A stretch of 64,000 nt of DNA. Source: an uncultured Acidobacteriota bacterium (GTDB lineage Bacteria > Acidobacteriota > Terriglobia > Acidiferrales > UBA7541). The first letter of the stretch is position 1. Each line of letters opens with the position of its first letter. Below, one piece after another: positions 2,316-64,000 of this stretch. A program made the position numbers and the translations under genes. The notes beneath the pieces are model-generated. The model was not told where the DNA came from, did no database searches, and was given only the letters and a program-made list of their open reading frames with translations. The DNA lies in assembly GCA_963797765.1 (NCBI GenBank), contig CAWCQU010000004.1, forward strand, positions 444,094-508,093, given 5' to 3'.

Positions 2316-2960
2316 GTGGCCCGAACGAGACGAGAGGAAACGGGAGAGCTGCCGGAGGCAGAAGCGATCCGGCTGGCCCAGCACGGCGACCCAGCGGCGT
2401 TCGAACGAATCTATCAATTACACAGCCGCCGAATTTATTCGCTGTGCCTGCGCATGGTCAGCAACACCGCCGAGGCAGAGGACCTGACGCAAGAAGCGTT
2501 TCTGCAACTCTTCCGGAAAATCGCCACGTTTCGGGGTGAATCAGCTTTTTCCACCTGGCTTCACCGGTTGGCCGTAAATGTGGTGTTGATGCGCCTGCGC
2601 AAGAAAAAGGTGTTGGAATCTTCCTTGGAGGAAGTGACCGAACCGGATGAGGAAAGTGGCGGTCCGCGGCGGGATTTTGGCGGGCCGGATTTGCGGTTGA
2701 ATGGATCGATCGACCGGGTGAATTTGCAGCGAGCGATCGAGGAACTGCCTCCGGGATACAAGCAGGTGTTCGTGCTGCACGACATGCAAGGCTACGAGCA
2801 CAACGAGATCGCAGATATTATGAGTTGTTCGATTGGTAACTCGAAATCGCAGCTTCACAAAGCACGCATGCGGCTGCGCGAGTTATTGCACGAAACCCAG
2901 CGGGACCAGGCCCGATCCGCACGACAGGCCGCCGCGGGCGAACTATCGGGTGAGGAATAA
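2316..2960 (+). CDS. ECF (sigma-70 family) RNA polymerase sigma factor
   Basis: Region 2 ([26 protein letters not shown]...[19 protein letters not shown]) and region 4 ([44 protein letters not shown]). Confidence 0.85.
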
Positions 2961-2966
2961 AGGAAA

Positions 2967-3617
2967 ATGGCTACGATCGGTTGTAATCAATTTATGGAAT
3001 TGACCGCGCCCTGGCTGGAAGGCGAACACCTTCCGGAGGCGGCGGCCCACTTGCGCGGGTGTCCTCAATGCCGTTCGGTTGTGACCGACCTGGAAGCGAT
3101 CCGGGCGGCGGCTGCCCATCTGGCGACGGAGGAAGTGGAACCGCCGGCGCGCGTGTGGCTGAATTTGCGCGAGCGGCTGGAAAACGAAGGATTGATCCGC
3201 CAGCCGGGATGGAGGGAACGGCTGGCCACAATCTTTTCGACGGTGCCGCGTCCGGCGATTGCAGGCGCTTTCCTTGGACTTTTCCTGGTGGCCGGGCTGT
3301 TGCTCGGGTATCAGAGCGATATGACGGCGAATCAAGATGCCTGGCTCAGCCGGACGCAGACTTCGGCATCCTCGCTGGGCTCGCAATTGGATGCCGCCGA
3401 GAAGGGAGCCGTTTCCTCCATCCGCGAACGCAACCCGATGGTGACTGCTTCCCTGAACCAGAACCTGGCCATCGTTGACAATATGATTGCGATGTGTGAA
3501 AAAAGCGTTCGCGAGGCTCCTCAGGACGAGATGACTCGCGACTTTCTCTACCAGGCTTATCAGCAAAAAGCGGATTTACTGGCTACCATGACGGAACGTG
3601 GGGTGAACGCACAATGA
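2967..3617 (+). CDS. anti-sigma factor, zf-HC2 type, single TM
   Basis: HLRGCPQC zinc motif near the N-terminus, a TM helix (IAGAFLGLFLVAGLLLGY), and it lies 7 nt after the sigma gene. Confidence 0.8.
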   Translation: MATIGCNQFMELTAPWLEGEHLPEAAAHLRGCPQCRSVVTDLEAIRAAAAHLATEEVEPPARVWLNLRERLENEGLIRQPGWRERLATIFSTVPRPAIAGAFLGLFLVAGLLLGYQSDMTANQDAWLSRTQTSASSLGSQLDAAEKGAVSSIRERNPMVTASLNQNLAIVDNMIAMCEKSVREAPQDEMTRDFLYQAYQQKADLLATMTERGVNAQ

Positions 3618-4489
3618 TGCTCGTACGCGGCCTTTCCCGATCTTCGGCTCCCAGGGCCGCTTATGTGCTGGCCGGGGTTATCTTCCTGGCCACGCCCGCG
3701 CTCGCGCATCACCTGGAAAAGCACTTTCCGGTTGTCGCCCATCCCATCGTCACCATTCATAATCCGAGCGGGACGATTACCGTGAAATCCTGGCCCAAGC
3801 AGGAAATCGCAGTCAGCGCCGACCATTTGAGCGACAAAGTGGAAGTGGAAGCGGAGCAAGATGGAAACCGGGTGGACCTGATTACCCGCGTGACTTCTGA
3901 GAACTGCAGTCCTGCGGACCTGGAAGCCAATTACGAAGTGACCGTGCCGGAAGATGCCGAATTGCAAATCCATAATGATTCCGGAGCCGTGGCCGTCACC
4001 GATGTGCTGGGCGATATGGCCGTGGATACGGTGGCTGCAGGCATTCAACTGGAAGATACGGCGGGCTACTTGACCGTGAAAACCGTCGGAGGCTCGTTCG
4101 ATTGCTTCCGATGTGGCGGCCGCATTGAGGCCCAATCCATCAGCGGAAATCTTCGCATTTTTGAGAATCGCAGTTCCAACGTGCGATTTCAGACGTCCAC
4201 GGGAAACATCCGCTTCGAAGGTGATTTCCTTCCCAGCGGTACGTATTTGCTGAAGAATTACAGCGGCACGATTGAAGTTCGTTTCTCTCCGCAAGATTCC
4301 TTCGACCTGCACGCCACTTCGCTCTATGGAAAAGTGATCAACGAAGCCAATCCCCTGAAACCGCCGGCGCATCCCACGCGCCAATCTCCACCGTTTGCCA
4401 AGAGCTTGCTGGGCACATTCAACGCGGGCCGCGCCAAGGTGGAGATGACTTCATTCAGTGGTATAATCAGCATTCGCAAGCGTGATTAA
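3614..4489 (+). CDS. DUF4097 (LiaG-like putative adhesin, beta-helical) domain protein with signal peptide
   Basis: ATGA overlap with the anti-sigma stop. Repetitive beta-strand pattern (ITVKSW.., VAVTDVLGDMAVDTVAAGIQLEDTAGYLTVKTVGGS..) typical of the DUF4097 family. Confidence 0.7.
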   Translation: MMLVRGLSRSSAPRAAYVLAGVIFLATPALAHHLEKHFPVVAHPIVTIHNPSGTITVKSWPKQEIAVSADHLSDKVEVEAEQDGNRVDLITRVTSENCSPADLEANYEVTVPEDAELQIHNDSGAVAVTDVLGDMAVDTVAAGIQLEDTAGYLTVKTVGGSFDCFRCGGRIEAQSISGNLRIFENRSSNVRFQTSTGNIRFEGDFLPSGTYLLKNYSGTIEVRFSPQDSFDLHATSLYGKVINEANPLKPPAHPTRQSPPFAKSLLGTFNAGRAKVEMTSFSGIISIRKRD

Positions 4490-4516
4490 CGCTGCAATCC
4501 CGCGGATGAATTCTTT

Positions 4517-5077
4517 TTGACACCGATGCCGCCTTCCGGCGAGACGCGCAATCCCAAAATTCTCTGCCTGATTGGATTCATGGGCTCCGGCAAGAGCACT
4601 GTCGCGCGCCTGCTGGCCCGCCAGATCGGCTGGTATGCCGTGGATCTGGACCGCGAGATCGTGGAGCGCGCCGGCATGGCCATTCCCGAAATTTTTAAGC
4701 GCCACGGCGAGCCTGCCTTTCGCGATCTGGAATACGCAGAGTTGGGGCGCGTTCTAGGCGAATCCATGGAACAAGGAAAGCGCCTGATTCTTTCGCTGGG
4801 CGGCGGCACGACCGCGCAGCCGCGCAGCCTGGAACGCCTCCGCGAAAATAATTGCACCCTGATCTGGCTACATTGTCCGGTGGAAGAACTGCTAAGGCGA
4901 TGCGCGCGCATCACCGACCGGCCGCTTTTTCGCGACGCGGATAGCTTTCGTAAACTGTACGAAGAAAGGCAACCCTCCTACGAACTGGCGGATTACCGCA
5001 TCGAAAGCGCAGTGGAGCCGCTGCGAGTGGTGGAGCAAATCCTGAATCTCGGAATCCATGAACGGGTGCCGGCATGA
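4517..5077 (+). CDS. aroK: shikimate kinase
   Basis: P-loop GFMGSGKSTV, DLD, LSLGGGT and the overall AroK layout. Confidence 0.85.
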   Translation: MTPMPPSGETRNPKILCLIGFMGSGKSTVARLLARQIGWYAVDLDREIVERAGMAIPEIFKRHGEPAFRDLEYAELGRVLGESMEQGKRLILSLGGGTTAQPRSLERLRENNCTLIWLHCPVEELLRRCARITDRPLFRDADSFRKLYEERQPSYELADYRIESAVEPLRVVEQILNLGIHERVPA

Positions 5078-6903: not shown

Positions 6904-9586
6904 CTATTTAACAATCAGGGTCACTTGCGTGGATTGTGTAACTCCCTGCGCAGTGGCCGTGATTGTGAGATTGTAAGTCCCTGCCGGTGTTCGGCCCGAG
7001 GGTCCACTGGGCCCGCCGGAGCAGCCTGCGATTGCGAGCAGCACCAAGGTAACGATGGGCACCGCGATTCGCACCCGGCGATTCTTGCGCGCCGCCAGTG
7101 AGAGCAGGATCAATCCCAATCCCGCCGCCAGCCACAAGCCGGGAACGCCGTGAAATTGATCCCAGGGCAGTGGAACGCGTGGCGCCCCCCAACTGCAGAA
7201 GGTGTTCAAGGTAATCGCGGTGACCGTGGGACTTCCCGGACTGAGCGTCGCGGTGGTGGGCGCGACAGAACAAGTGATCGAAGCGGCCGAGCTGGTGCAG
7301 CCCAATCCCACCGTTCCCGCGAATCCACCACTTCCCGCAAGGGTCAGGAAGAAAATGGCGGTGTCACCGGGATTTACGGTGAGAGTAGTTGCGGTGCCCG
7401 ATTGGACGGTTAGGGTAAATGTGTTGCTCGAGCCGGTGCCTGTGAGCGGAACCGAGTGGGGGCTACCCGGCGCATTATCAACAATCGTTATGGCGCCGGA
7501 ACGAGCACCCGCTACGGTGGGCTTAAATGTAACGGAAATGGTGCAGGTGCCATTCGCCGCGATCGGAGAAGCCGTCATACATGTGGTGGTGTCGGCAAAA
7601 TCGCCGCTCGGTGTGACCGAGGTGACCGTCAGCGGTGCCGTTCCTGTATTCGTCAAAGTCACCGTTTGCGCGGGGGAAGTTCCTCCGATCGCCTGGCTGG
7701 TAAACGTCAGGCTAGTGGGCGATAGCGAGACCGCTGGGCTAGCTGCGGCCGTGGTTCCCGTGCCGGAGAGAGTGATGAAGTGCGGGCTACCGGCATCCGT
7801 ATCGTTCACGGTGGCTGTCCCGTTCACAGCTCCGAGGGCAGTGGGAGAAAACGTCACGGCAAATGTGCAGGAAGAATCGGCGGCCAAGGTATTCGGCGCC
7901 ACCGGGCAATTATTAGTGATGCCGAATCCGGCTGTGGCCGTGATGGTACTGATCGTGACGGCAGTGGCGCCGCTATTGGTTACCGTAACGGTCTGGGGCG
8001 CGCTGGTGGTGTTTTGCGCCTGGTTGCCGAACGCCAGTGTGGACGGCGCCACGGTGACCGACGAACTCACGAAGCTACCGGCTTTGATAAACACATTGGA
8101 ATCCAGTGCTTCGTCCGAAGTATCGGCGATCGCGAGCTTGATGTGATTGGTCTGTCCGGCGTTTACAGTCGCCTGAACCGTCAGCACCACCGTCAGCCCG
8201 TCCATTTCCGTGTTCAGCGGCGCCACATTGGGGATCTGAAAATCATTGTTGACGAAGAACTGCGGATTTTGCGGATTGGTTCCCAGGGGGTTGCCGCCGT
8301 TCACATTGTTGATCGAGACAATCGTGGTGGTGCCGGGCAGAAGCGCCACGTTTTTTCCGTTGACGAAGAAACCAAATACGTCGTTAAACGCGCTGTTGGC
8401 AAACTCGTTGTATTCATCGGAGCTGAATACATATTGGAAACTCACCGAGTTGCTGGCGGGAACGAAATCGAACTGCAAAACGGCGGCATCGTCCGTTGTA
8501 TTCGGCGCTACCAGAGTGTTGAGATCGGTATCCCCCGGAGTCCCATTTGCAGTCGTGATCGCGGAGCTGCAATTTGGTCCAATCACATTGGAGACCGACC
8601 CGGTGCTCAACACGATTCCGGTATTCAGGCCCAAAATCCCAGCGCCCCCCGAGAAGCTTCCCGCGGCATTGTTCGCCCCGGTGTAAGTGATATTGCTTGC
8701 GGTGACGCCGGCGCCCAAGAGCGAATTGACCAGATCATTAGGAGTAAGCGTGGTGAGGTCGCTGGTGGTCAGCCCGCCCGCGCCTGCGCCCGTGCCTTCC
8801 GTGAAAATAGAGAATGAGCCGGCGCCCACCACATCATCCGTGACGGTGATTGTCCCAGCCTGATCGCACACCTGTGTGGGCGAAAATGAGACGTTAATCG
8901 TGCAGTTGGCCCCGGCGGCGAGTGAAGCTCCACAGGTATTCGTCTGAGAAAACCCGGTGCTGGCGGTGATCGCCGTGAAGTGAATCGTGGTGGTTCCGTT
9001 GTTAGTGACGACGACGGGCTGCGACGCGCTAGTGGTGCCGATCGCTTGTTTGCCGAAGGTCACAAAACTAGTCGAGATCGTGGGAGCGATTCCAGTACCG
9101 GTGAGAGTGACTATTTGCGGACTGCCGGTGGCATTGTCGGTCACCGTGAGGCTTCCATTTAACACGCCGGTCGCGGTCGGAGCGAAGCTCACGAAAATGG
9201 TGCAAGTGGCGTTGGGAATAACAGCCACGTTCAAGCAAGAATCGCCTTCAATCAGAAAGTTGGCGGTGATTTGTTCGTTTGTCACCGTAAGGTTTACGGC
9301 ATCCGTATTGGTGATGGTGACGGCGGACGACGAGCTGATGGCCCCGACGGGAAGATTGCTGAAATTGATGCTCATGGTGGAAAAGCTGATGGCCGGCGAT
9401 TTCCCGGGCAGGTCCGCGGTTACGTTTCCGTGTTGCTGCTGTTCCCACGCTCTGCGCGCGGGCGAAGTGGCTTGCGCATGTAGGCCTCTTAGTCAGTGGC
9501 GGTTCTTGCTGCTGTTGCGCCCAAGCGAATGAGCCCGAAATCAGTGCTGCGCAGACCAACGTGGTGGAATAGAGGAAACGCATCGT
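6904..9586 (-). CDS. Giant surface protein with repeated choice-of-anchor D-like Ig domains and a central choice-of-anchor L-like domain. The signal peptide (ATG at 9586) is out of frame with the body (ATG at 9375); there is a PEP-CTERM-like motif 56 aa before the end.
   Basis: Body repeats of the pattern TVTLTNTG..L.I.SI.....F.......C...L..G.SC...V.F.PT..G...G.L...DNA.GSP. The central domain is ...LQFDFVPASNSVSFQYVFSSDEYNEFANSAFNDVFGFFVNGKN.... MRFLYSTTLVCAALISGSFAWA follows a perfect RBS (GGAAAGGAG) at 9586 but is shifted by +1 relative to the 6904..9375 ORF. Confidence 0.7.
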
Positions 9587-9899: not shown

Positions 9900-11054
9900 C
9901 TACAGCGCGGCTCGACGCGACACTCGCGAGTGTTCCGGCGGCTTGGGCGTATCGAGTTCGACGTTTACGCTGACTTGCGTGCCCTTGCGGACTACCCCAA
10001 TCGCCACCGTCTTCTGATCGCGCCTGCTGCGCAGCCGCTCCCGCAGTTGATTGACGGTTTTCACCTGCTGGTCGTCCACCTTGTAGATTATGTCTCCGGC
10101 CTTGATTCCTGCTTTTTCCGCGGGCGTTCCGGGCCGGACTTCGCGAACCAGAACCCCCTCGTCGCCCGGTGCGTCGAAATACGAGCCCAGTTGTCCGCTG
10201 ACGTCTTCCGCGCTGACGCCCAGTTGCGGCGTGATTCCCAATTCCACTCGTTGCATATCCAACCCCAAATCCATCTGCGGCATTTCCAGGATGAATGGCT
10301 TCACATCCTTCATCACTCGCGCCATCGGTGAAGTTCGGTTGCCCACTTCCACGGAAACTTTTTCCGTCTTGCCGCCGCGCCACACTTGCAGCTCAATCGA
10401 CCTGCCGGGCGGCGTCTCGCGCACCATACGGCGGAATTGTAGCGTTCCCTCGATGTCCTGCCGTTCGTAGGAAGCAATCACGTCATTGGCCTTCAGGCCC
10501 GCTTTCGCTGCCGGACTATCGGCTTCCACTTCCGTCACCAGCACCCCACGAATCGCAGGCAGGCTCAGTTCCTTGGCTTTCTCCGCGGTTACCTCGGAGA
10601 TTTCCACGCCCAGCCATCCGCTTTCGTCGCCCACTTCGATCCATAGTTTGTCGGCGTCCACTTTGGGGGTCAGCTGGGCAGCCATTTCCCGCGCTTGTTT
10701 TTCGATATCCTGCCGGTCGGACTGAATTTCCTGCTGTGCGCTGGCCATGGCCGCCCTCACTTCTTCAAGACGGGCAAGCCGATCCGGTTCCATCTCGCTC
10801 ACCTCCCGGGCTACCCGCCTTCGGATCTCTGCCATCTTTGACGCCAATTCGCTGGCAATGGTCTTGAGGTCATCCTCGGAAATCTGCCCTGAATTCGCGG
10901 GAGAAACTTCCGAAGGCGCCTGCGCCGCTGGATGGCTGGATGCCAAAGCCATAGCAGCGGATGTCTTGCCTTTACATTGGGCAGACGGCAACGCCCAAAG
11001 ACTCAGCGCCAGCGTGCCCGCACCTGCCAGTGCCACATATCCACGAATACGCAT
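9900..11054 (-). CDS. secreted protein with two PDZ domains and a coiled-coil, no protease domain
   Basis: Signal peptide MRIRGYVALAGAGTLALSLWALPSA, strong SD (TAGGAGG). PDZ-like segments GWLGVEISEV...GVLVTEVEADSPAAKAGLKANDVI and GVLVREVRPGTPAEKAGIKAGDIIYKV. Confidence 0.75.
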   Translation of the reverse strand: MRIRGYVALAGAGTLALSLWALPSAQCKGKTSAAMALASSHPAAQAPSEVSPANSGQISEDDLKTIASELASKMAEIRRRVAREVSEMEPDRLARLEEVRAAMASAQQEIQSDRQDIEKQAREMAAQLTPKVDADKLWIEVGDESGWLGVEISEVTAEKAKELSLPAIRGVLVTEVEADSPAAKAGLKANDVIASYERQDIEGTLQFRRMVRETPPGRSIELQVWRGGKTEKVSVEVGNRTSPMARVMKDVKPFILEMPQMDLGLDMQRVELGITPQLGVSAEDVSGQLGSYFDAPGDEGVLVREVRPGTPAEKAGIKAGDIIYKVDDQQVKTVNQLRERLRSRRDQKTVAIGVVRKGTQVSVNVELDTPKPPEHSRVSRRAAL

Positions 11055-11085
11055 TCGTGCCTCCTAAAGTTCCACATCCCAACCC

Positions 11086-11832
11086 TCAGAGGTTGGGCCT
11101 TTCCGTCACAACCCGGATTCGTCCGTTCACCGTGCGAATCGAGACCGCGCTGCCACCCGAGCCTAGTTGACCGTGAAACGAGCGCGCGTTGAACGTACCC
11201 TGCGAAACCACCGGCAATTCTGACAAAAAGTCGCCATTCATCGAACGGACATCGAGGTTGGCTTTCGCGTTCGAGGGAACCGCAAGCACCACCGATCCGT
11301 TCACAGTGGAGAGTTCCACCGGATCGCCTTCTGTCAGCCGCAACAATTCCAATCGCAAATTTCCGTTTGTTGTGTGAGCGCTAAATCGGCCCGTGCTGTT
11401 GAGCACTTCCACGTTTCCGTTCACCGAACGCAGCCAGCCGTTCCCTTCGACGCCTCGAATCAGCACGCTGCCATTGACGGTCGCCACTCCGCCCAGCAGC
11501 ACCCGATACGGCACGTGGATGTGGTATTCCACGGCCACGTCCACCCCGCTATTCTGCGGGTAACGGGTATGCACCGAGATATTGGAATTCCCGGCATCCA
11601 CTTCAATCTTCACTCGCTCCGCATCTGCCGGATCCTCGTGCGCCGTCTTTACCGCCACAATTTCCACTTCTTCCTTTTCCCAGCCGTCCACTTGTACAGA
11701 CCCGTTTACATTCTCGAGCGAGAACGATCCCCCGCGCGAAAGCGGGTACGTGTGATCAAACACCTGGTCCACCGCGAAAGCCGGCGCCGTTGCAACCAAA
11801 CCGAACATCAGGAACCACAGGATTCGTCGCAT
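11086..11832 (-). CDS. DUF4097 family protein with signal peptide
   Basis: MRRILWFLMFGLVATAPAFA after SD GAGGGGGAAG, then repetitive SVNG.V strands. The ORF track start at 11910 is too long. Confidence 0.75.
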   Translation of the reverse strand: MRRILWFLMFGLVATAPAFAVDQVFDHTYPLSRGGSFSLENVNGSVQVDGWEKEEVEIVAVKTAHEDPADAERVKIEVDAGNSNISVHTRYPQNSGVDVAVEYHIHVPYRVLLGGVATVNGSVLIRGVEGNGWLRSVNGNVEVLNSTGRFSAHTTNGNLRLELLRLTEGDPVELSTVNGSVVLAVPSNAKANLDVRSMNGDFLSELPVVSQGTFNARSFHGQLGSGGSAVSIRTVNGRIRVVTERPNL

Positions 11833-11944
11833 TGCTTCCCCCTCACCGAAGCGTTCCGACTCTTTTTGCTTCCTGGGACGCTGCAGCCGCCTGCAACATC
11901 CACGATCCATTTGAACTTATCCAACCACTTCTACTTGGCCCTTT

Positions 11945-13324
11945 CTAATCCGGCTTGTCTGGTTTGGCCGGCTTTGCAGCCGGAGCCGGAGCGGGCGTAG
12001 GTTCCGGCTTCTGTACAATGCGCATCTGAGTTTCTATCTGTTTTTGGAGGTGCTCCATCTGCTGCGTATAAATTTGCTTCTGCAGTTGCAGGCAGGTGTC
12101 GCTCAGGATCAGCCGGATGTTTCCGGCCACCGTTCGCAGTTTCAGAACTCCACCGCCTCCGTTGAGCAAGCCTTCGGCGTGCACTACGCGGGCGCCGCCT
12201 TCGCTGCCTACGTAACTGATCTTCAAGGGGAATGCCGGATCGGCGATCACATGATGCTCATCGCCCAGTTGAATTTGCGCGTCGATGGTCAGCGGCAGCC
12301 ATTTAGGCAGGTACACCACGATGTCGCCATCGCCCGATTCCAATTCCGACGCACTGGCAAGCTTGGCTTCGGGTACGAACCATGCCGTGATTCCGCCTGT
12401 GCCGGTGGAGGCGCGCACCGGGCTTTGCACTTGCGTCAAGTAGATGCTGCCGTCGCCTGTTTCGAGCTGTGTTGGTCCCGCGAGGCGCGCCACGCGAATC
12501 CCGCCTCCGCCAGTCTGCGCGCGGATTGCGCCCCAGGCTTCGCCCACTTCGATTTGCCCGCCGCTGGTGGTGGCCACAAGTCCCGCGCCTGCGTGTTCCA
12601 GGGATACGTTGCCTCCGCCGGTATCGAGCCGCGCGATTCCGCCAACGGATCCCAGGTGTATATGGCCACCGCCCGTATGCAAGACGGCATTGTGGCCGAT
12701 TTTGCCCACGCTGATGTGTCCGCCGCCGGTGCTGACGGTGAGATCGTCCGTAACGTCTTTTACATGGATATGTCCGCCGCCCGTTTCCAGCCGCGCGCTT
12801 CCGTTCACGTTTCCGATAGTGATATCGCCGCCCGCGGTGGTGAGCAAAACGTGGCCCGACGCGTCTTCCGCGTCGATCGAGCCCGCTCCGGTGTTTACTT
12901 CCAGGCTGTACTTCACCGGAACTGTCACGTCGTAGGTAATCCACAAGTGTTCGACATCTTCGCGCCGCACGGCTTTTCCGTGCATGAGCACGCCATCGGG
13001 CAAATTCGCCACCATCACCAAAAATGTTTTGTTTTCTTTGTTGTTTGCCGGGATGGCTCCGCTTTGATCGGTTTCCACACGCACGCGAAAGCTCACTTCA
13101 TTGGTCTGCTGCATGTGAATATGTACGTCGCCCAGTTCAGTCCCGAGCTTCAGCCGCTGTCCTTCGTGCGCCGCGAGCTTTCCTGTTTTTTCTTCCAGCA
13201 GGCGCCGCTGCGAATTTCCCGGATTCAGCGAGTGGAATTTCTGTTTCCCGAACGCCGCCGGGATCAGCAATCCGCCCGCCGCCAGCGCCGCCGCAATCCA
13301 TCGAATTGGCACACGTCGATTCAT
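11945..13324 (-). CDS. DUF4097-like beta-helical protein with about 10 TGGGHIHV-type repeats, a coiled-coil and a Pro/Ala/Lys-rich tail
   Basis: Repeats such as LTTAGGDITIGNV, LETGGGHIHVKDV, VSTGGGHISVGKI, LHTGGGHIHLGSV, LDTGGGNVSLEHA. Confidence 0.75.
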   Translation of the reverse strand: MNRRVPIRWIAAALAAGGLLIPAAFGKQKFHSLNPGNSQRRLLEEKTGKLAAHEGQRLKLGTELGDVHIHMQQTNEVSFRVRVETDQSGAIPANNKENKTFLVMVANLPDGVLMHGKAVRREDVEHLWITYDVTVPVKYSLEVNTGAGSIDAEDASGHVLLTTAGGDITIGNVNGSARLETGGGHIHVKDVTDDLTVSTGGGHISVGKIGHNAVLHTGGGHIHLGSVGGIARLDTGGGNVSLEHAGAGLVATTSGGQIEVGEAWGAIRAQTGGGGIRVARLAGPTQLETGDGSIYLTQVQSPVRASTGTGGITAWFVPEAKLASASELESGDGDIVVYLPKWLPLTIDAQIQLGDEHHVIADPAFPLKISYVGSEGGARVVHAEGLLNGGGGVLKLRTVAGNIRLILSDTCLQLQKQIYTQQMEHLQKQIETQMRIVQKPEPTPAPAPAAKPAKPDKPD

Positions 13325-13356
13325 GGTGCTTGGGTTAAATATCTCCGGGATTCAAT

Positions 13357-14445
13357 TCAGTACTTTTCGCGCGGGCCCAAATCGCGGATCACCGATGCGC
13401 TTTGGATGCGAATGTAGGGATTGGAATCCTTCTCCATTCGCTCACGCAGTACTTTCAACACATTGGGATCTTCGCGAAAGTCGCCTTTTTCGGCCATGGC
13501 GCGCAGCGCGTTCATCGCTTCAATGCGCACGCCGGGATTCGAATCGTCCGCCAGCGCATCGAGAAGTGTTTTGCGGACCAGGTCCTGCGGCTCGGCGCCG
13601 TTCAATGCTTCAAGAGCTTTCAACCGAACTGCGGCATTTCCATCGGTGCGAACCGCATCGCACAGGGCCTGGCGGATGTCCGGATCGTTGCCACGAGCCT
13701 TCAAGAGTTCCACGGAATCGAGCCTCACGTCGGGGCTGAATCGCTTGTTATTGCGCAGCACGTAAAGCAGCACGCGTTTCACGTCGTTGTTATCCACCGT
13801 GCCCTGCAGCACCACCGGCTGCGCAGCATTCATCTGCACTTCGATTTTCGGCGCTTCGTTTCCGCTGCCCGGCGTCCAGTTGATTCCCGAAACGTCCGCC
13901 GAGCGCAGCGCCTGTTCATCAAACGGAAGAGTTCCCGCGGGTTGGGCGGGCATGATTCCGTTTGTCACAGAAGTGGAAACCGCTGTGGCATCCGGCCCAG
14001 GGAGCGAGTTCGCCACCCGCACCTGCTGCCGCAGCAATCGTGGCGCCAGCGTGCCCACCGAAAATCCAACTAGCACAAATAAAGTAGCGCTCAGCGCCGG
14101 GTGCAGCGCAAACCATCGTCCGGGAAAAAGAGTTTCGGACCAGCGAGCCAACACACCGCGAAATCCCGTGCGCGATTCCGCGATCTCATCAATTTTTTCA
14201 TCCAGCGCGGTGCGGCAACTTGCCAGCAGATTCGCGGGTGGCTCTTCTGTCCCTGCCGTAGCCACCACTTCCAACAGTCGTTGCTCGCCAGCCAGTGAAA
14301 TATTGCACGCGCGACAGCCGGCAACGTGAGCTTCCACTTCACTCCGTTCCTCGCGCTCCAGTTCGTCCGCGGCATACAGCACAATCCGCTGCTCGAATTC
14401 CGGGCAGGGCGCGCCTGACGATATTCCTTTTAATTCTTCCGCCAT
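13357..14445 (-). CDS. anti-sigma factor (zf-HC2) with TM helix and C-terminal HEAT/PBS-lyase-like repeats
   Basis: HVAGCRAC zinc motif, TM WFALHPALSATLFVLVGFSVG, and C-terminal repeats NAAVRLKALEALNG / NPGVRIEAMNALRAM / NPYIRIQSASVIRDLG. Confidence 0.75.
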   Translation of the reverse strand: MAEELKGISSGAPCPEFEQRIVLYAADELEREERSEVEAHVAGCRACNISLAGEQRLLEVVATAGTEEPPANLLASCRTALDEKIDEIAESRTGFRGVLARWSETLFPGRWFALHPALSATLFVLVGFSVGTLAPRLLRQQVRVANSLPGPDATAVSTSVTNGIMPAQPAGTLPFDEQALRSADVSGINWTPGSGNEAPKIEVQMNAAQPVVLQGTVDNNDVKRVLLYVLRNNKRFSPDVRLDSVELLKARGNDPDIRQALCDAVRTDGNAAVRLKALEALNGAEPQDLVRKTLLDALADDSNPGVRIEAMNALRAMAEKGDFREDPNVLKVLRERMEKDSNPYIRIQSASVIRDLGPREKY

Positions 14446-14483
14446 TTCTTGTTCCTCACCTTCCCAGCGTTATCACGGCAATT

Positions 14484-15224
14484 TCAAATCATATGGTTCA
14501 GCCGCGCGCGCATTTTTCGCGTCGCGCGAAACAGCGAATTCTTTACCGTCTCTTCCGAAGTGCCGAGCATCTCGCCGATCACCCGCAGCTTCAGTCCCTG
14601 ATAGTGCTTTAATTCAAATACCGTCCGTTCGCGCGGCGAAAGCAAATCCAGCGCCTCATTGATGTGCTTCCCAATTTCCTGGCCCATCAAATGCCGCTCG
14701 GGATTGGCTCCAGCGCGCACTTCCGGCTGGCGATCGAAAAAATCCGACGTGGCATTTTCGCCGTCATCGGTTGCCGGAGCTTGATCTTCCCGCCGCGAAT
14801 TCTGCCGCCGCAAGTGATCCAGGCACACATTCGTCACGATCCGGTAGAGCCAGGTGTAAAAACTGCATTCGAAGCGAAACCGGTGCAGGTTGCGGTAAAC
14901 GCGCAGAAAACTTTCCTGGTAAATATCGCGGGCATCTTCCGATCCGCGCATCAGGTGCGAAGCCAGCCGCAACACTTCGCGGTCGTATTTGCGCACCAAT
15001 TCCTCAAACGCCACGCGGTCGCCCGCCTGGGCTTTGCGGACCAGAGCCTGTTCGTCTCCTGTGTCCAATGCCGCTGGCCGCGTACTGGCCTCGAACGCGA
15101 CGCTCATCCCTGTAGAATGCATAGCCGGTTGCGATCCGCTCGCCTTTGGAGTTCGTTCAACTGCCCTGGCGAAATCCGCCACCCCCCGGCAGCCCGCCTT
15201 TGTCGCTATCTCTGATGCTTCCAC
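14484..15224 (-). CDS. ECF sigma factor with an N-terminal extension of about 60 aa
   Basis: Region 2 (VAFEELVRKYDREVLRLASHLMRGSEDARDIYQESFLRVYRNLHRFRFECSFYTWLYRIVTNVCLDHLRRQ) and region 4 (LSPRERTVFELKHYQGLKLRVIGEMLGTSEETVKNSL). Confidence 0.8.
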   Translation of the reverse strand: MEASEIATKAGCRGVADFARAVERTPKASGSQPAMHSTGMSVAFEASTRPAALDTGDEQALVRKAQAGDRVAFEELVRKYDREVLRLASHLMRGSEDARDIYQESFLRVYRNLHRFRFECSFYTWLYRIVTNVCLDHLRRQNSRREDQAPATDDGENATSDFFDRQPEVRAGANPERHLMGQEIGKHINEALDLLSPRERTVFELKHYQGLKLRVIGEMLGTSEETVKNSLFRATRKMRARLNHMI

Positions 15225-36946: not shown

Positions 36947-37852
36947 TTAGGCGCGAAAACGGCTGGCCTGGCGGATCTCCTTGCGGTAATCGGGCGCGGC
37001 CATTTCGATGGTGCGGCACATTTCATAGAGGCGGGAGCGAATGCGCTTGCCAATCCGATCGGTGAGGGAATCTTCGATGGCGGACGGGCGGCTGGAAGAA
37101 GATTGCGGAGCGGCGGCGGGATCGCCGTCGAGAAAATTAGTTGTGATTATGGTGATGCGCTTTTCGTTATAGCGGGTGTTTAAGATGTGGCCGACGGTTT
37201 CGAGGGCCCACGGGGATGGTTTGCTGGCTCCCAGATCGTCGAGCAACAGCACATCGGTGGTGAGGACAGGCTCAAGGACACCCATTTCGGTGGCTTGGTT
37301 TACCGGACTGTAGCTGGCCTGAATTTCCTTGAGCAGTTCGCGATAGTCGTAAAAAAGTCCGGTATGCCCGCGCAAGACGATCTGGCGCAGAGCGGCGACG
37401 GCCAGATGAGTTTTACCGATGCCGCACGAGCCCATCAAGAGCAAACCATGCTCGACGCCGACTGGAAAATCGCGCGCGAAACCTTCCACAACCAGCTTGG
37501 CTTGCGCCAGGCTGCGATTCCAGTTTGCTACTTCTTTTTGGGCGTCATGATCGTACTGTAAATCGGTGTCAAAACTTTCGAAGTCGCAATGAAGATAGCG
37601 CTGCGGAAGGCGAGTTCGTTCGAGCGTTCTTGAGTCGCGGTCTTCCGCTCCGCAATCGCAACGAACTGCGATGCGCGGCGCGCCTTGGGAAAATCCTGGC
37701 TTAGGATCGAGTACGAAAGCTTTGACGCCGTCGTCTTCAGCCCGTTTGGCGGCCGCTGCGGGAACGGGATGTTGAGATGCGGGGACGGAAACTTCGCCTT
37801 CGACAATTTTCCAACCCATGCCGCCGCACAAAGGACAATCGGGTCGCGCCAT
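36947..37852 (-). CDS. DnaC/IstB-family AAA+ ATPase with an N-terminal Cys4 zinc ribbon (putative helicase loader); no transposase nearby
   Basis: CPLCGG...CDCG; Walker A GSCGIGKTHLAVA; Walker B VLLLDDLG; ITIITTN. Confidence 0.65.
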   Translation of the reverse strand: MARPDCPLCGGMGWKIVEGEVSVPASQHPVPAAAAKRAEDDGVKAFVLDPKPGFSQGAPRIAVRCDCGAEDRDSRTLERTRLPQRYLHCDFESFDTDLQYDHDAQKEVANWNRSLAQAKLVVEGFARDFPVGVEHGLLLMGSCGIGKTHLAVAALRQIVLRGHTGLFYDYRELLKEIQASYSPVNQATEMGVLEPVLTTDVLLLDDLGASKPSPWALETVGHILNTRYNEKRITIITTNFLDGDPAAAPQSSSSRPSAIEDSLTDRIGKRIRSRLYEMCRTIEMAAPDYRKEIRQASRFRA

Positions 37853-45129: not shown

Positions 45130-47399
45130 CGAATGCATCGTTCCCCTGAAAAAGGAAGGCGATTTGCGTTTGCAATTATTCCGATTGCTGCATTTGCAAT
45201 TTTTTTGCGGGTGCGGATGTTGCGCGCGCGCAGGGCGGCGGTAAAGAACTGACTGTAGAGCGCATCGCGAGCCATCCGAGCTTGAGCGGGACAAATTTGG
45301 AAGGCTTAGAGTGGGCGCCGGACGGCAAGCGGTTGAGCTATTTTCACCGGTTGGGCGAAGGGCGCGGTTCTCGCAACGAACTTTGGGTAGTGGATGCCGC
45401 CACGGGACAACACAGCGTGTTGGTGGACGCGGACAAGCTTTCGTCACTGCTGCCGCCTTCGAAATCCGCGCCTTCGCAGGCCACTGGCCTGGCGCGCGTG
45501 CAGGCTGACCGCTATCTATGGGCGCCGAACGGAAGAGCATTGCTATTTAGCAGCGATGAAGGGTTGGTTTGGCTCGATCTGAACACTCATGAAACGAAAA
45601 CCTTGATCACTTCGGATTCACCGGTGGCGGATGCAAGGATTTCGCCCAACGGCGAGTGGGTGAGCTTCGTGCGCGATCACAATCTGTGGACGATCGATCT
45701 TTTGACGCGAAAGGAGACGCAAGTCACGCGCGGCGGGAATAGCGAATTTTTGGAGGGCGAACTCGACTGGGTGTATCCCGAAGAACTGGCGCTGCACGAA
45801 GCGTATTGGTGGTCACCTGATTCGACACATATCGCCTATTTGGAGATGGATGAACGGCAGGTGACGAAATATCCGATCGTGGACTATCTCTCCTACACCG
45901 GCGCGATGCGAACGATGTTCTATCCCAAGGCGGGCGATGCGAATCCGATTGTGCGCGTGGGAGTGGTGGCGGCTACCGGCGGCAAGACGCAATGGATGAC
46001 AACCGGATCGAACACGGATATTTACATTCCGCGGGTGAATTGGCTGCCCGACAGCAAGCGCCTGGCAATCCAGCGGCTGAACCGCGCGCAAAACAAACTG
46101 GAACTGCTGCTGGCGGATTCGGAAGGCGGGACTTCGCAAGTGATCCTGACCGATTCGGACAGGTATTGGATCAACGTGAGCGACGATCTTTATTTTTTCA
46201 AGGACGGGAAGCGATTTCTGTGGTCGAGCGAGCGCACGGGATACCGGCACTTTTATATTTACGATCTCAGCGGCAATCAGATGGATCAGCTTACATCCGG
46301 GGACTGGCACATCATCGGCACACAGGGATTCGGCCCGGGCGCGGTGAACGAGCCCGCTGTGGACGAGGCGAGCGGCTACGTTTATTTTCTTTCGAACAAG
46401 GAGAGCCCCATCGAAACGCAGCTTTATCGAGTTTCGTTGAAGGACAAGCAGGTCACGCGCATCACGAGAGAGGCCGGGGCGCACTCGGTGCATTTTTCTC
46501 CGACGGCCAGTGCGTTCGTGGACAGCTACTCGAACGCGATGACTCCGCCGCGGCAGGACTTGTATCACGCCGACGGCGCGAGGATCGCGGTGCTGAATGA
46601 AAATGTCGTGGCGGAGCTGAATGAATATCATCTGGTGCCGCCGCAATTCATCGTTATTCCCGGAGCGGACGGCACGCCTCTTGAGGCGGCGGTGATTCGT
46701 CCGCCGGATTTCAGCGGCGCGAAAAAGTATCCGGTAATTTTGCACGTATACGGCGGACCGGGCGCGCAAACGGTGCGAAATGCCTGGGAGGGCGCGAATT
46801 TTCTGTGGCATCAAATAATGGCGCAGAAGGGATTCATCATTTTGGAGCTGGACACGCGCGGAACGGCGGGGAGGGGACATGCTTTCGAAACGCCGATCTA
46901 TCATCATTTCGGCGATCCCGAACTTGCCGACGAACTGGCCGCTGCCAAATATTTGAAGTCGCTCGATTATGTGGATGGCTCGCGAATCGGGATATGGGGA
47001 TGGAGTTTCGGCGGATTCATGACGGTGACGACGATGTTCAAGGCCGGGGACGTGTTTAAGGCTGGATTTGCTGGATCGCCGGTTACGGATTGGCGGCAGT
47101 ACGACACGATTTATACGGAACGCTATATGGGGAAGCCCCAGGACGATCCGGAGGGGTATCGGGATTGCTCTCCAGTGAATTTCGCCGCGCAGCTCTCCGG
47201 GAAACTCTTGATTGCAGCGGGCACGGGCGATGACAACGTTCATTTCGGCAATACAGTGGAGCTCGCGGAAAAGCTGATTCAAGCGGACCGCTACGCTGAG
47301 ATTGCGATCTATCCTGGGCGGGGACACGGCATCAGCGATCCGCCGGCACGGATCCAATTGTTTCAGCGGGTGACGAAATTCTTTCTTGATAATTTGTGA
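45130..47399 (+). CDS. S9 family dipeptidyl-peptidase (DPP IV-like). The signal peptide is out of frame with the body at a T7 run (45200-45206).
   Basis: C-terminal peptidase_S9 (GWSFGGFMT, ...D..H). Upstream frame MHRSPEKGRRFAFAIIPIAAFAIF... after AAGGAAGG. Adding one T to the T7 run gives ...AFAIFFAGADVARAQGGGKELTVERIASHPSLSGTNLEGLEWAPDGKRLSY. Confidence 0.8.
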
Positions 47400-62860: not shown

Positions 62861-63096
62861 CGGATTCGAACAAATTGTTCATCGTCGCTCCCCAGGCGGA
62901 GAGCTCTGCGATTTTTGCGCGGGTGCTAAATTCAAAAACCAGTTGAAAGAACTTGCATTGGCCGGTTGTTCCGGGCGTAGATTTGTTGTGGAGGTTACTT
63001 TCTGGAAGCGAGGTCGCCAGCGAGTGACTCCTGCAGAAACCACTCTCAGGATTCAGTTGCACCGGAGCCCGAACCCGTCGTTCAATTGAATCCTCC

Positions 63097-63636
63097 ATGT
63101 ATGTCTGCCCAAAATGCGAGCAATCGATCAACCAGGCCAGCGAACTGTGCCCCTATTGTGGCGCCGACCTTACCGCGGTAGAAGAACCGGAAGCGCAAAC
63201 GGGAAAGAAACGCAGCTTGGCCAAAGCGCTGATTCTGTGGGGAGTGGCGATCGGTTTCCTGTGGCTAATGGTGTGGATCGCGCTGCCATTGCGCATGCTG
63301 AATCCGACCATGCAGTCGGAAAGCCACGCGCTGGAAGCTCTGAAAAACCTACGCGCTTCACTTTCGGACTATTCCGGATCGGAAGGCGCTTACCCTCCGT
63401 CGCTCGATGCGATGGGCAATTCCGCGGCGCACGCCGCCGCTCAATGGGCGCTGAGCGCCGGATACCAAATGCAATACACTCCCGCGCAGCCGGGCGATGA
63501 CGGGCGCGTGCATGGCTACACGCTTGTTGCCCGGCCGAGCAATTACGGATTCCGCAGCTTTTTCTGCGACGAAACGGGCATTGTGCGTTACACGCGCGAA
63601 GACCGGCCCGCCACCGCGCAAGATCCCCCCATCTAG
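63097..63636 (+). CDS. membrane protein with an N-terminal zinc ribbon (CPKC...CPYC) and one TM helix
   Basis: MYVCPKCEQSINQASELCPYCGADL, TM ALILWGVAIGFLWLMVWIALPL. Confidence 0.5.
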   Translation: MYVCPKCEQSINQASELCPYCGADLTAVEEPEAQTGKKRSLAKALILWGVAIGFLWLMVWIALPLRMLNPTMQSESHALEALKNLRASLSDYSGSEGAYPPSLDAMGNSAAHAAAQWALSAGYQMQYTPAQPGDDGRVHGYTLVARPSNYGFRSFFCDETGIVRYTREDRPATAQDPPI

Positions 63637-63695
63637 CTATCACCGTGTGCCCACTCGAAAATCATCGCTCGCGAATAAGCCTTGCCACCAGGCGC

Positions 63696-64000
63696 GTGAG
63701 CGCAATCTTGTTCGCGATCTTGTGCTTTTCTCTGCTCGCCGGTGCGCAGCAATCGAGCAAAGATGAACCAGGCGGGCAGACGACTTCACAAACTTCAAGC
63801 CAAAATACCGAACAGCAAAAAAAAGACGACATGCAGGACATGCCCGGAATGGATCATCACCGCATGGCCGGCGCACCGGCGGGCCAGCACGATCGAATGC
63901 ACAAGCACCAGGAAACTTTTCTTCAGGAAATTGTTCATCACGGTACTTCGGGCACAAGCGCGGAGCCCAATTCCACTCCGCATGACATGCTGATGACCAG
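63696..64000 (+). CDS. Partial (runs off the right edge) secreted His/Met-rich protein with a CopB/PcoB-like N-terminal MDHH motif
   Basis: GTG/TTG start, signal peptide SAILFAILCFSLLAGAQQ, then ...MQDMPGMDHHRMAG...DRMHKHQ.... Not in the ORF track because the window edge truncates it. Confidence 0.35.
   Translation, partial: MSAILFAILCFSLLAGAQQSSKDEPGGQTTSQTSSQNTEQQKKDDMQDMPGMDHHRMAGAPAGQHDRMHKHQETFLQEIVHHGTSGTSAEPNSTPHDMLMT

Follow-up and report, generated by a model that had tools for sequence, protein, structure and literature searches.

A predicted lipoprotein-type anchoring module inserted into the last Ig-like repeat of an acidobacterial choice-of-anchor surface protein

How is a large exported protein held at the cell surface when its C-terminus carries what looks like a transmembrane anchor, followed directly by what looks like the signal peptide of a lipoprotein? 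This question is raised by a gene for a choice-of-anchor surface protein (hereafter, the adhesin) on the minus strand of a 64,000-nucleotide stretch of DNA from an uncultured bacterium of the Acidobacteriota, class Terriglobia (contig CAWCQU010000004.1, positions 444,094 to 508,093; hereafter, the window, to whose numbering all adhesin coordinates refer). Counted from the first ATG, the main open reading frame (ORF) encodes 823 amino acids (aa; 6904..9375), and its frame is free of stops further upstream to about 9492. Near its end lies the segment FHGVPGLWLAAGLGLILLSLAARKNRR (aa 741–767, 7075..7155), which is followed by exactly 56 residues, VRIAVPIVTLVLLAIAGCSGGPSGPSGRTPAGTYNLTITATAQGVTQSTQVTLIVK (VRIAV…TLIVK; aa 768–823, 6907..7074), starting at a GTG codon (7074..7072). 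A preliminary description of this DNA had recorded the tail correctly, including its length and GTG, but had placed the preceding segment at 7075–7149, with the lower bound right and the upper bound 6 nt short of 7155. It had offered a PEP-CTERM-like anchor, a lost stop codon, a nested gene, or a new type of C-terminal processing as explanations. Here we argue for a form of the last of these, namely, a curated but little described anchoring module set into an immunoglobulin (Ig)-like repeat.

The C-terminal 102 residues of the adhesin (aa 722–823) match NF058595, the NCBIfam “lipo-invert putative C-terminal anchoring domain” (invert_tail; 113 positions), with a score of 61.5 bits (cutoff 37; E 8.7e-17). 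The match covers model positions 6–113 and finishes on the last residue of the protein; an isolated 103-residue segment scored 68.6 bits. The tail occupies the C-terminus of a larger protein whose export is indicated by the N-terminal signal peptide of its orthologues, and both the adhesin and the wider family have two hydrophobic helices, a short basic loop between them and a lipobox cysteine ending the second, features that represent our reading of the family name and members. The same model also matches an orthologue and eight diverse relatives, including proteins from Longimicrobiales, Eremiobacteraceae, Verrucomicrobiae and Sulfotelmatobacter. On these matches, the adhesin tail is a member of NF058595, from which it shows no difference at the model level, and its layout has already been curated in NCBIfam. 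Given the E value of this match and the recurrence of the layout in 104 other proteins, the arrangement is far beyond chance. Of the processing proposed in the preliminary description, the special character thus survives, whereas the novelty does not. We consider it fairly probable that the tail is an NF058595 C-terminal anchoring module that resides in the final Ig-like repeat of a choice-of-anchor D/L protein exported by Sec and operates by the mechanism outlined below.

Read toward its C-terminus, the module begins with a proline-rich spacer, CSWGAPRVPLPWDQFHGV (aa 727–744, 7144..7197), with RVPLPWDQFHGV just before the first transmembrane (TM) helix. This helix, TM1 (PGLWLAAGLGLILLSLAA; aa 745–762, 7090..7143; mean Kyte-Doolittle hydrophobicity 1.88), is a predicted stop-transfer segment. 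It is followed by the basic loop RKNRRVR (aa 763–769, 7069..7089), which holds the GTG at 7074–7072 and is predicted to be cytoplasmic and to serve as the n-region of an internal signal peptide. The second helix, TM2, provides the h-region and lipobox (IAVPIVTLVLLAIAG; aa 770–784, 7024..7068; mean hydrophobicity 2.68) and leads to Cys785 (7021..7023) of the lipobox I-A-G-C, the predicted site of diacylglyceryl attachment and LspA cleavage. A Gly/Ser/Pro tether, SGGPSGPSGR (aa 786–795, 6991..7020), then connects to a terminal β-hairpin, TPAGTYNLTITATAQGVTQSTQVTLIVK (aa 796–823, 6907..6990), which constitutes the last third of a split Ig-like repeat and ends at a TAG stop codon (6904..6906) whose position is identical in all orthologues. 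The succession RKNRRVR / IAVPIVTLVLLA / I-A-G-C conforms to the pattern of a type II signal peptide, with the lipobox compared to [LVI][ASTVI][GAS]C, but not to the N-terminal position required of a classical one, given that the signal-like segment comprises aa 763–785 of 823. The likeness to a lipoprotein signal peptide noted in the preliminary description is borne out, and what follows it is a portion of an Ig-like domain. Separately, we observed an extra cysteine at aa 727 (7195–7197, in the motif NTFCSW), right behind the N-terminal part of the split repeat, which is common to the orthologues and to the relatives P0001 and P0040 and is not a feature of the wider family.

The leading idea of the preliminary description was a PEP-CTERM/exosortase-type signal. 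In its favor, TM1 and the Arg/Lys cluster behind it lie near the C-terminus, the extra residues might be removed or irrelevant, and choice-of-anchor domains are known to occur with various C-terminal sorting signals. However, no PEP motif directly precedes TM1 in the adhesin, and in 102 relatives the stretch before TM1 is proline-rich without any fixed motif. The models for PEP-CTERM and other sorting signals gave no match, either with the whole protein at E≤0.1 or with the TM1-plus-RR segment alone at E≤10. In addition, the basic cluster is not C-terminal, being followed by the 56 conserved residues, and no exosortase gene was found among the genes of the 64-kb window. We therefore regard a PEP-CTERM-type signal as very improbable. 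The comparison extends to GlyGly-CTERM/rhombosortase and LPXTG/sortase substrates, which, like PEP-CTERM proteins, combine a C-terminal TM helix and a basic cluster and include large surface proteins, choice-of-anchor proteins among them. Unlike all three, the adhesin lacks a signature motif or model match, another helix, a lipobox and a folded segment come after its basic cluster, and no dedicated sorting enzyme is encoded near the adhesin or at three distant family loci.

The integrity of the gene end was addressed through orthologues. A genome scan with full-length alignment returned only three close orthologous loci, L004, L006 and L005, encoding proteins 94%, 76% and 73% identical to the adhesin, respectively, all in metagenome-assembled genomes of Acidobacteriota/Terriglobia. 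The four orthologues (73–94% identical; P0148/L006, L004, L005) end alike, with helix, RR, helix, lipobox and tail followed by TAG. The 56-residue extension is uniform, one of two findings named in the preliminary description as together counting against its reading; for the other, the lack of an exosortase in the genome, the part covered here was the 64-kb window, which encodes none. Pairwise ratios of nonsynonymous to synonymous differences (pN/pS) were 0.05–0.12 from Cys785 to the end, 0.18–0.25 in the spacer and helix hairpin, and 0.06–0.20 in the Ig part before the insert. The low values for the tail indicate that it is translated in this frame and is under constraint at least equal to that on the rest. 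The whole split-domain unit is conserved and evolves under purifying selection, which is strong in the tail.

These data also bear on the possibility of a gene-structure artefact, namely, a lost stop codon that fused the adhesin with a small lipoprotein gene downstream, or a nested gene starting at GTG 7074 in the manner of phage Rz/Rz1. The attraction of this idea is that the tail, read from that GTG, looks like a complete lipoprotein precursor. The end shared by the orthologues, as aligned, excludes a lost stop codon, and the fused layout recurs in more than 100 diverse proteins. That same shared end argues strongly against a nested gene, as does, at the level of the codon itself, the replacement of the GTG by GCG (Ala) in L006; the bases upstream of the GTG, AAGAATCGCCGG, contain no ribosome-binding site of the Shine-Dalgarno type. 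Moreover, its homology to the final part of the repeat interrupted ahead of it means that the tail is not an independent protein. Taken together with these observations, an artefact is hardly tenable. P0063, the only candidate examined as a stand-alone two-gene version, proved to be a gene truncated where its contig stops; the similar P0064 lay outside this check. As described in PMC6139136, phage spanins combine an inner-membrane helix and a lipoprotein element within one locus (nested Rz/Rz1) or within one chain (unimolecular spanins). The nested Rz1 gene resembles the nested-gene idea for the adhesin tail, but the adhesin has neither a conserved internal start nor a phage context, and, compared with unimolecular spanins, its elements come in the reverse order.

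The homology of the tail to the preceding domain emerged from a profile of the Ig-like repeat built from 300 uninterrupted copies (97 positions; consensus DFSLSASPSSQTVAAGSSATYTVTVTALNGFSGSVSLSVSGLPAGATASFSPASVTGSGSSTLTVTTSSSTPAGTYTLTITGTSGSLTHSATVTLTV). The N-terminal two thirds of the last repeat of the adhesin (aa 652–726, 7198..7422) contain a match to profile positions 7–67 at aa 661–722 (23.8 bits, E 2.6e-9), and positions 69–97 match aa 794–822 (21.4 bits), collinear with the first piece. Between the two pieces lies an insert of 71 aa. It occupies the loop that leads into the final two strands of the repeat and contains, in this order, the proline-rich spacer, TM1, the basic loop, TM2 with the lipobox cysteine, and the Gly/Ser/Pro tether. 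In 82 relatives, the repeat is broken at about the same profile position by an insert with a median length of 71 aa (range 47–158), and the stretch behind the cysteine has a median length of 42 residues.

The repeat itself occurs commonly among surface proteins of Acidobacteriota. Searching the full library with the profile retrieved 24,218 representative proteins at E≤0.001, including P0089 through P0235, most of them matched through plain repeats in tandem, of which a single protein can have as many as 65. No Pfam model matched the repeat above threshold, the best match of the consensus being DUF11 at 21.8 bits, below the 24.6-bit cutoff. A profile search of Protein Data Bank sequences found no relative.

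This relationship clarifies the composition of NF058595. The consensus of the plain 97-residue repeat, which includes neither helices nor a cysteine, scores 40.2 bits on positions 73–112 of the model. Hence, these positions correspond by homology to the final 40 residues in an uninterrupted repeat, and the end of the NF058595 model is simply the end of the Ig-like repeat, with the module inserted into it. What we add to the existing model is therefore the notion that the anchoring module is an insertion into an ordinary Ig-like repeat. A practical corollary is that, with 40.2 bits exceeding the cutoff of 37, a protein that does no more than finish in an intact repeat can be mislabelled by NF058595.

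Structure prediction is consistent with a single domain split by the insert. The AlphaFold model of the last 172 residues, based on a 55-sequence alignment, had a mean predicted local distance difference test (pLDDT) score of 85.7. It contains β-strands in model residues 1–74 (aa 652–725), mostly with pLDDT above 90, helices at residues 94–113 (TM1) and 115–132 (TM2), a tether with low pLDDT (residues 135–147), and two further strands at residues 148–158 and 161–171 with pLDDT around 97. The preliminary description had counted one Ig strand after the cysteine; in the models, there are two, forming a hairpin. A model of P0024, a relative of another phylum (Candidatus Eremiobacteraceae), showed the same β part, two helices and β-hairpin (pLDDT 85.1). 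In both models the two halves of the repeat fold together, and the tail strands are predicted to belong to the same sandwich as the part before the insert, in agreement with Foldseek.

Homologues of the last 172 residues mostly share this layout, with a few carrying an uninterrupted domain. We took an unbiased census of 149 retrieved proteins that terminate where the repeat does: the last repeat was intact in 42 and split in 104. All 104 split domains have a cysteine within 32 residues ahead of the last piece, and 101 of them contain at least two TM-like segments. The latter count matters because both halves of the Ig-like domain must be on one side of the membrane, so that the helices separating them need to be even in number. 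The loop joining the two helices has a median length of 7 aa and a median net charge of +3, with a charge of at least +2 in 97 of 102 cases. The lipobox consensus is L-A/V/T-G/A/S-C, with position −1 in the family logo partly fixed by the search pattern, and is followed by G-G-G; the residue right after the cysteine is G in 86 proteins, S in 9 and never D, and Lys and Arg are scarce behind the cysteine. The passengers vary, including choice-of-anchor D, Big_3_5, FG-GAP and PKD domains and a subtilase annotation, and the named sources are Acidobacteriota, Gemmatimonadota (Longimicrobiales), Eremiobacterota and Verrucomicrobiota. When the 30 members with a Met start and at least 450 aa were screened by a rough hydrophobicity criterion, 16 showed a classical N-terminal signal peptide; the remaining ones look like truncated gene calls. 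On three metagenome contigs (L007, 4175–7068; L008, 597–3273; L009, 4242–6972), an ORF with similar passenger domains ends 8–50 nt before the short tail-bearing call on the same strand, and each of these pairs is probably a single large gene split by a frameshift or by the gene caller. A six-frame regular-expression scan of the window detected no second tail-bearing protein and no PEP-CTERM-like end.

From these features, the likeliest mechanism is the following. The N-terminal signal peptide would send the passenger across the inner membrane until TM1 stops transfer, with its N-terminus outside and its C-terminus inside, leaving RKNRRVR in the cytoplasm. TM2 would then re-insert as an internal type II signal peptide, so that the last 38 residues would emerge on the side of the passenger. 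Lgt would lipidate Cys785, LspA would probably cut between Gly784 and Cys785, and the lipidated 38-residue β-hairpin would supply the two missing strands of the Ig-like domain, tying the passenger to a lipid anchor. The topology of Sec-inserted proteins obeys the positive-inside rule, and lipoproteins are matured by Lgt, LspA and Lnt; it is from these rules that we infer the topology and lipidation of the adhesin. Neither lgt nor lspA was found among the genes of the 64-kb window; both are near-universal in bacteria. The position of the insert within a folded domain, rather than behind it, would be most readily understood if cleavage takes place and the lipidated hairpin has to be held by the fold. 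Compared with known type II lipoprotein signals, the similarities are the positive n-region RKNRRVR, the 15-residue h-region, I-A-G-C and the Gly/Ser-rich tether. The differences are that the signal of the adhesin lies some 60 residues short of the C-terminus, behind an exported passenger of 890 residues and a predicted stop-transfer helix, and that the predicted mature lipidated product is only 39 residues long.

The main rival to this reading is a plain two-helix hairpin anchor on the inner membrane, with the cysteine kept for another reason and neither lipidated nor cleaved. Two hydrophobic helices with a positive loop suffice for stable insertion, the Ig halves would come together on the outer face even in an uncleaved chain, and the lipidation of Cys785 rests on prediction. 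A plain hairpin would, however, need neither a folded piece behind it nor an invariant cysteine, yet a cysteine is present at the exit of TM2 in all 104 split domains, preceded by positions −3 to −1 that fit a lipobox and followed by a Gly-rich tether typical of lipoproteins. A role of this cysteine in a disulfide is also unlikely, as it sits where TM2 ends and within a lipobox. On balance, we rate the plain hairpin as unlikely.

Several considerations weigh against the lipid-anchor mechanism itself. Full-text literature searches found no paper or experiment on the NF058595 architecture, and the name given by NCBI qualifies the function as “putative”. Nor did we find, for any protein, a shown case of lipidation or LspA cleavage of an internal signal behind a stop-transfer helix. 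No recurrent enzyme is encoded next to the family loci, as judged from the adhesin locus and three distant members. If LspA cuts, the passenger remains covalently attached to the two helices, and the benefit of the lipid would then require a further cleavage. Finally, in the window copy, the N-terminal Sec signal peptide MRFLYSTTLVCAALISGSFAWAQQQQ (9506..9583, minus strand) is in another frame than the gene body, and the protein as assembled may not be exported.

The last of these points raises the possibility of a decaying pseudogene, in which a frameshift after the signal peptide would render the whole gene, including the tail, non-functional. The signal peptide starts at ATG 9583, with AAGGAG ahead of it and a promoter-like site further upstream (9712–9684), and is in frame in the orthologues P0148, L004 and L005. 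In the window, it is parted from the body by a 1-nt insertion within 9469..9487 (minus strand; AGGCCTACATGCGC) relative to L004, which reads AGGCCCGTAGCGC in frame at about 5,990. The closely similar contig ERZ25039458:contig_4901 from ENA has a different indel at the same spot (AGGCCTAAGCGC; L001, about 11,480–11,500), 1 nt shorter than L004. That two assemblies with 99.6% identity should differ from L004 by distinct indels at this one site suggests an assembly error rather than a pseudogene, and the spot looks like a hotspot of consensus or assembly errors. The remaining 857 codons are intact, 94% identical to L004 at the protein level and characterized by low pN/pS. We accordingly find the pseudogene explanation quite unlikely, and the frameshift, even if real, would leave the nature of the tail unchanged.

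Beyond the favored mechanism, in which a lipidated hairpin ties the passenger to the membrane, we tentatively entertain, with more doubt than confidence, a two-chain “inverted” lipoprotein. Here, the LspA cut would fall in the loop of the Ig-like domain, the lipidated 39-residue peptide would be held as the last two strands, and a second cut, ahead of TM1 or inside it, such as one made by a rhomboid-type protease, would free the passenger from the helix hairpin. The C-terminal end of the adhesin would then sit on an N-terminal-type lipid anchor and could follow lipoprotein traffic to the outer membrane or the cell surface. Such an arrangement would best account for the fact that the insert is strictly confined to the interior of a folded domain. 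It differs from donor-strand complementation in chaperone-usher pili in that both pieces of the adhesin come from one precursor and the donor is a lipid-bearing two-strand hairpin, with the two-chain state itself being conjectural.

In the main ORF, NCBIfam models identified choice_anch_L, four choice_anch_D stretches and invert_tail. The choice-of-anchor L domain (NF038133; aa 214–435, 8071..8736, minus strand) scored 257 bits against a cutoff of 27. For choice-of-anchor D, NF012200 was matched at 188.1 bits versus a cutoff of 45; the best of the four choice-of-anchor D domains, which are Ig domains of the ASH/Cep192-like type, spans aa 534–637 (7465..7776, minus strand). Pfam likewise reports Ig-like domains of the ASH/Cep192/HYDIN type in the adhesin.

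Two similar sets of genes encoding an extracytoplasmic function (ECF)-type sigma factor, a small protein and DUF4097 “putative adhesin” proteins lie on both sides of the adhesin (approximately 2316–5077 on the plus strand and 9900–15224 on the minus strand), the small protein in one of these sets being a zf-HC2 anti-sigma factor. A secreted PDZ protein is encoded directly upstream of the adhesin. These neighbours may have a regulatory link with the adhesin. Apart from the ECF sigma/anti-sigma pairs, DUF4097 proteins and PDZ protein, the window encodes PhzF, a tRNA synthetase, a DEAD helicase, S1, DnaK/DnaJ and DPP-IV, among others. An ORF of 301 aa with an IstB/IS21-like ATPase domain (36947–37852, minus strand), between the gene for ribosomal protein S1 and dnaJ, may be a mobile-element remnant or a DnaC-like protein.

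Overall, the window and the ENA contig (a 940-kb metagenome contig, compared as L001, L002 and L003) are 99.3–99.6% identical, with 7–12 gap openings per 20 kb, and the identity falls to 96% over 62,930–64,000; by this comparison, they appear to be closely related assemblies or strains. A single 705-aa ORF for a DPP-IV/peptidase S9 protein in the window (45282–47399, plus strand) corresponds to two gene calls (479 and 235 aa) in the ENA contig, which suggests indel differences between both assemblies at this site as well.

These findings imply that annotating tails of this kind as fusions, read-through products or PEP-CTERM signals would be a mistake. The tail is frequent among the retrieved proteins, which reach about 2,500 residues and come from the hard-to-study soil phyla named above. 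Large surface proteins of diderm bacteria are known to be fixed by N-terminal lipidation, by β-barrels or by sorting systems devoted to the C-terminus, among them exosortase, rhombosortase and the type IX secretion system. The module described here suggests another route, in which the universal lipoprotein machinery would be borrowed for the C-terminal end of a protein by way of an internal lipoprotein signal set into an Ig-domain loop, and the two-chain model, if true, would make it a natural split-domain anchoring device and a new class of LspA substrate.

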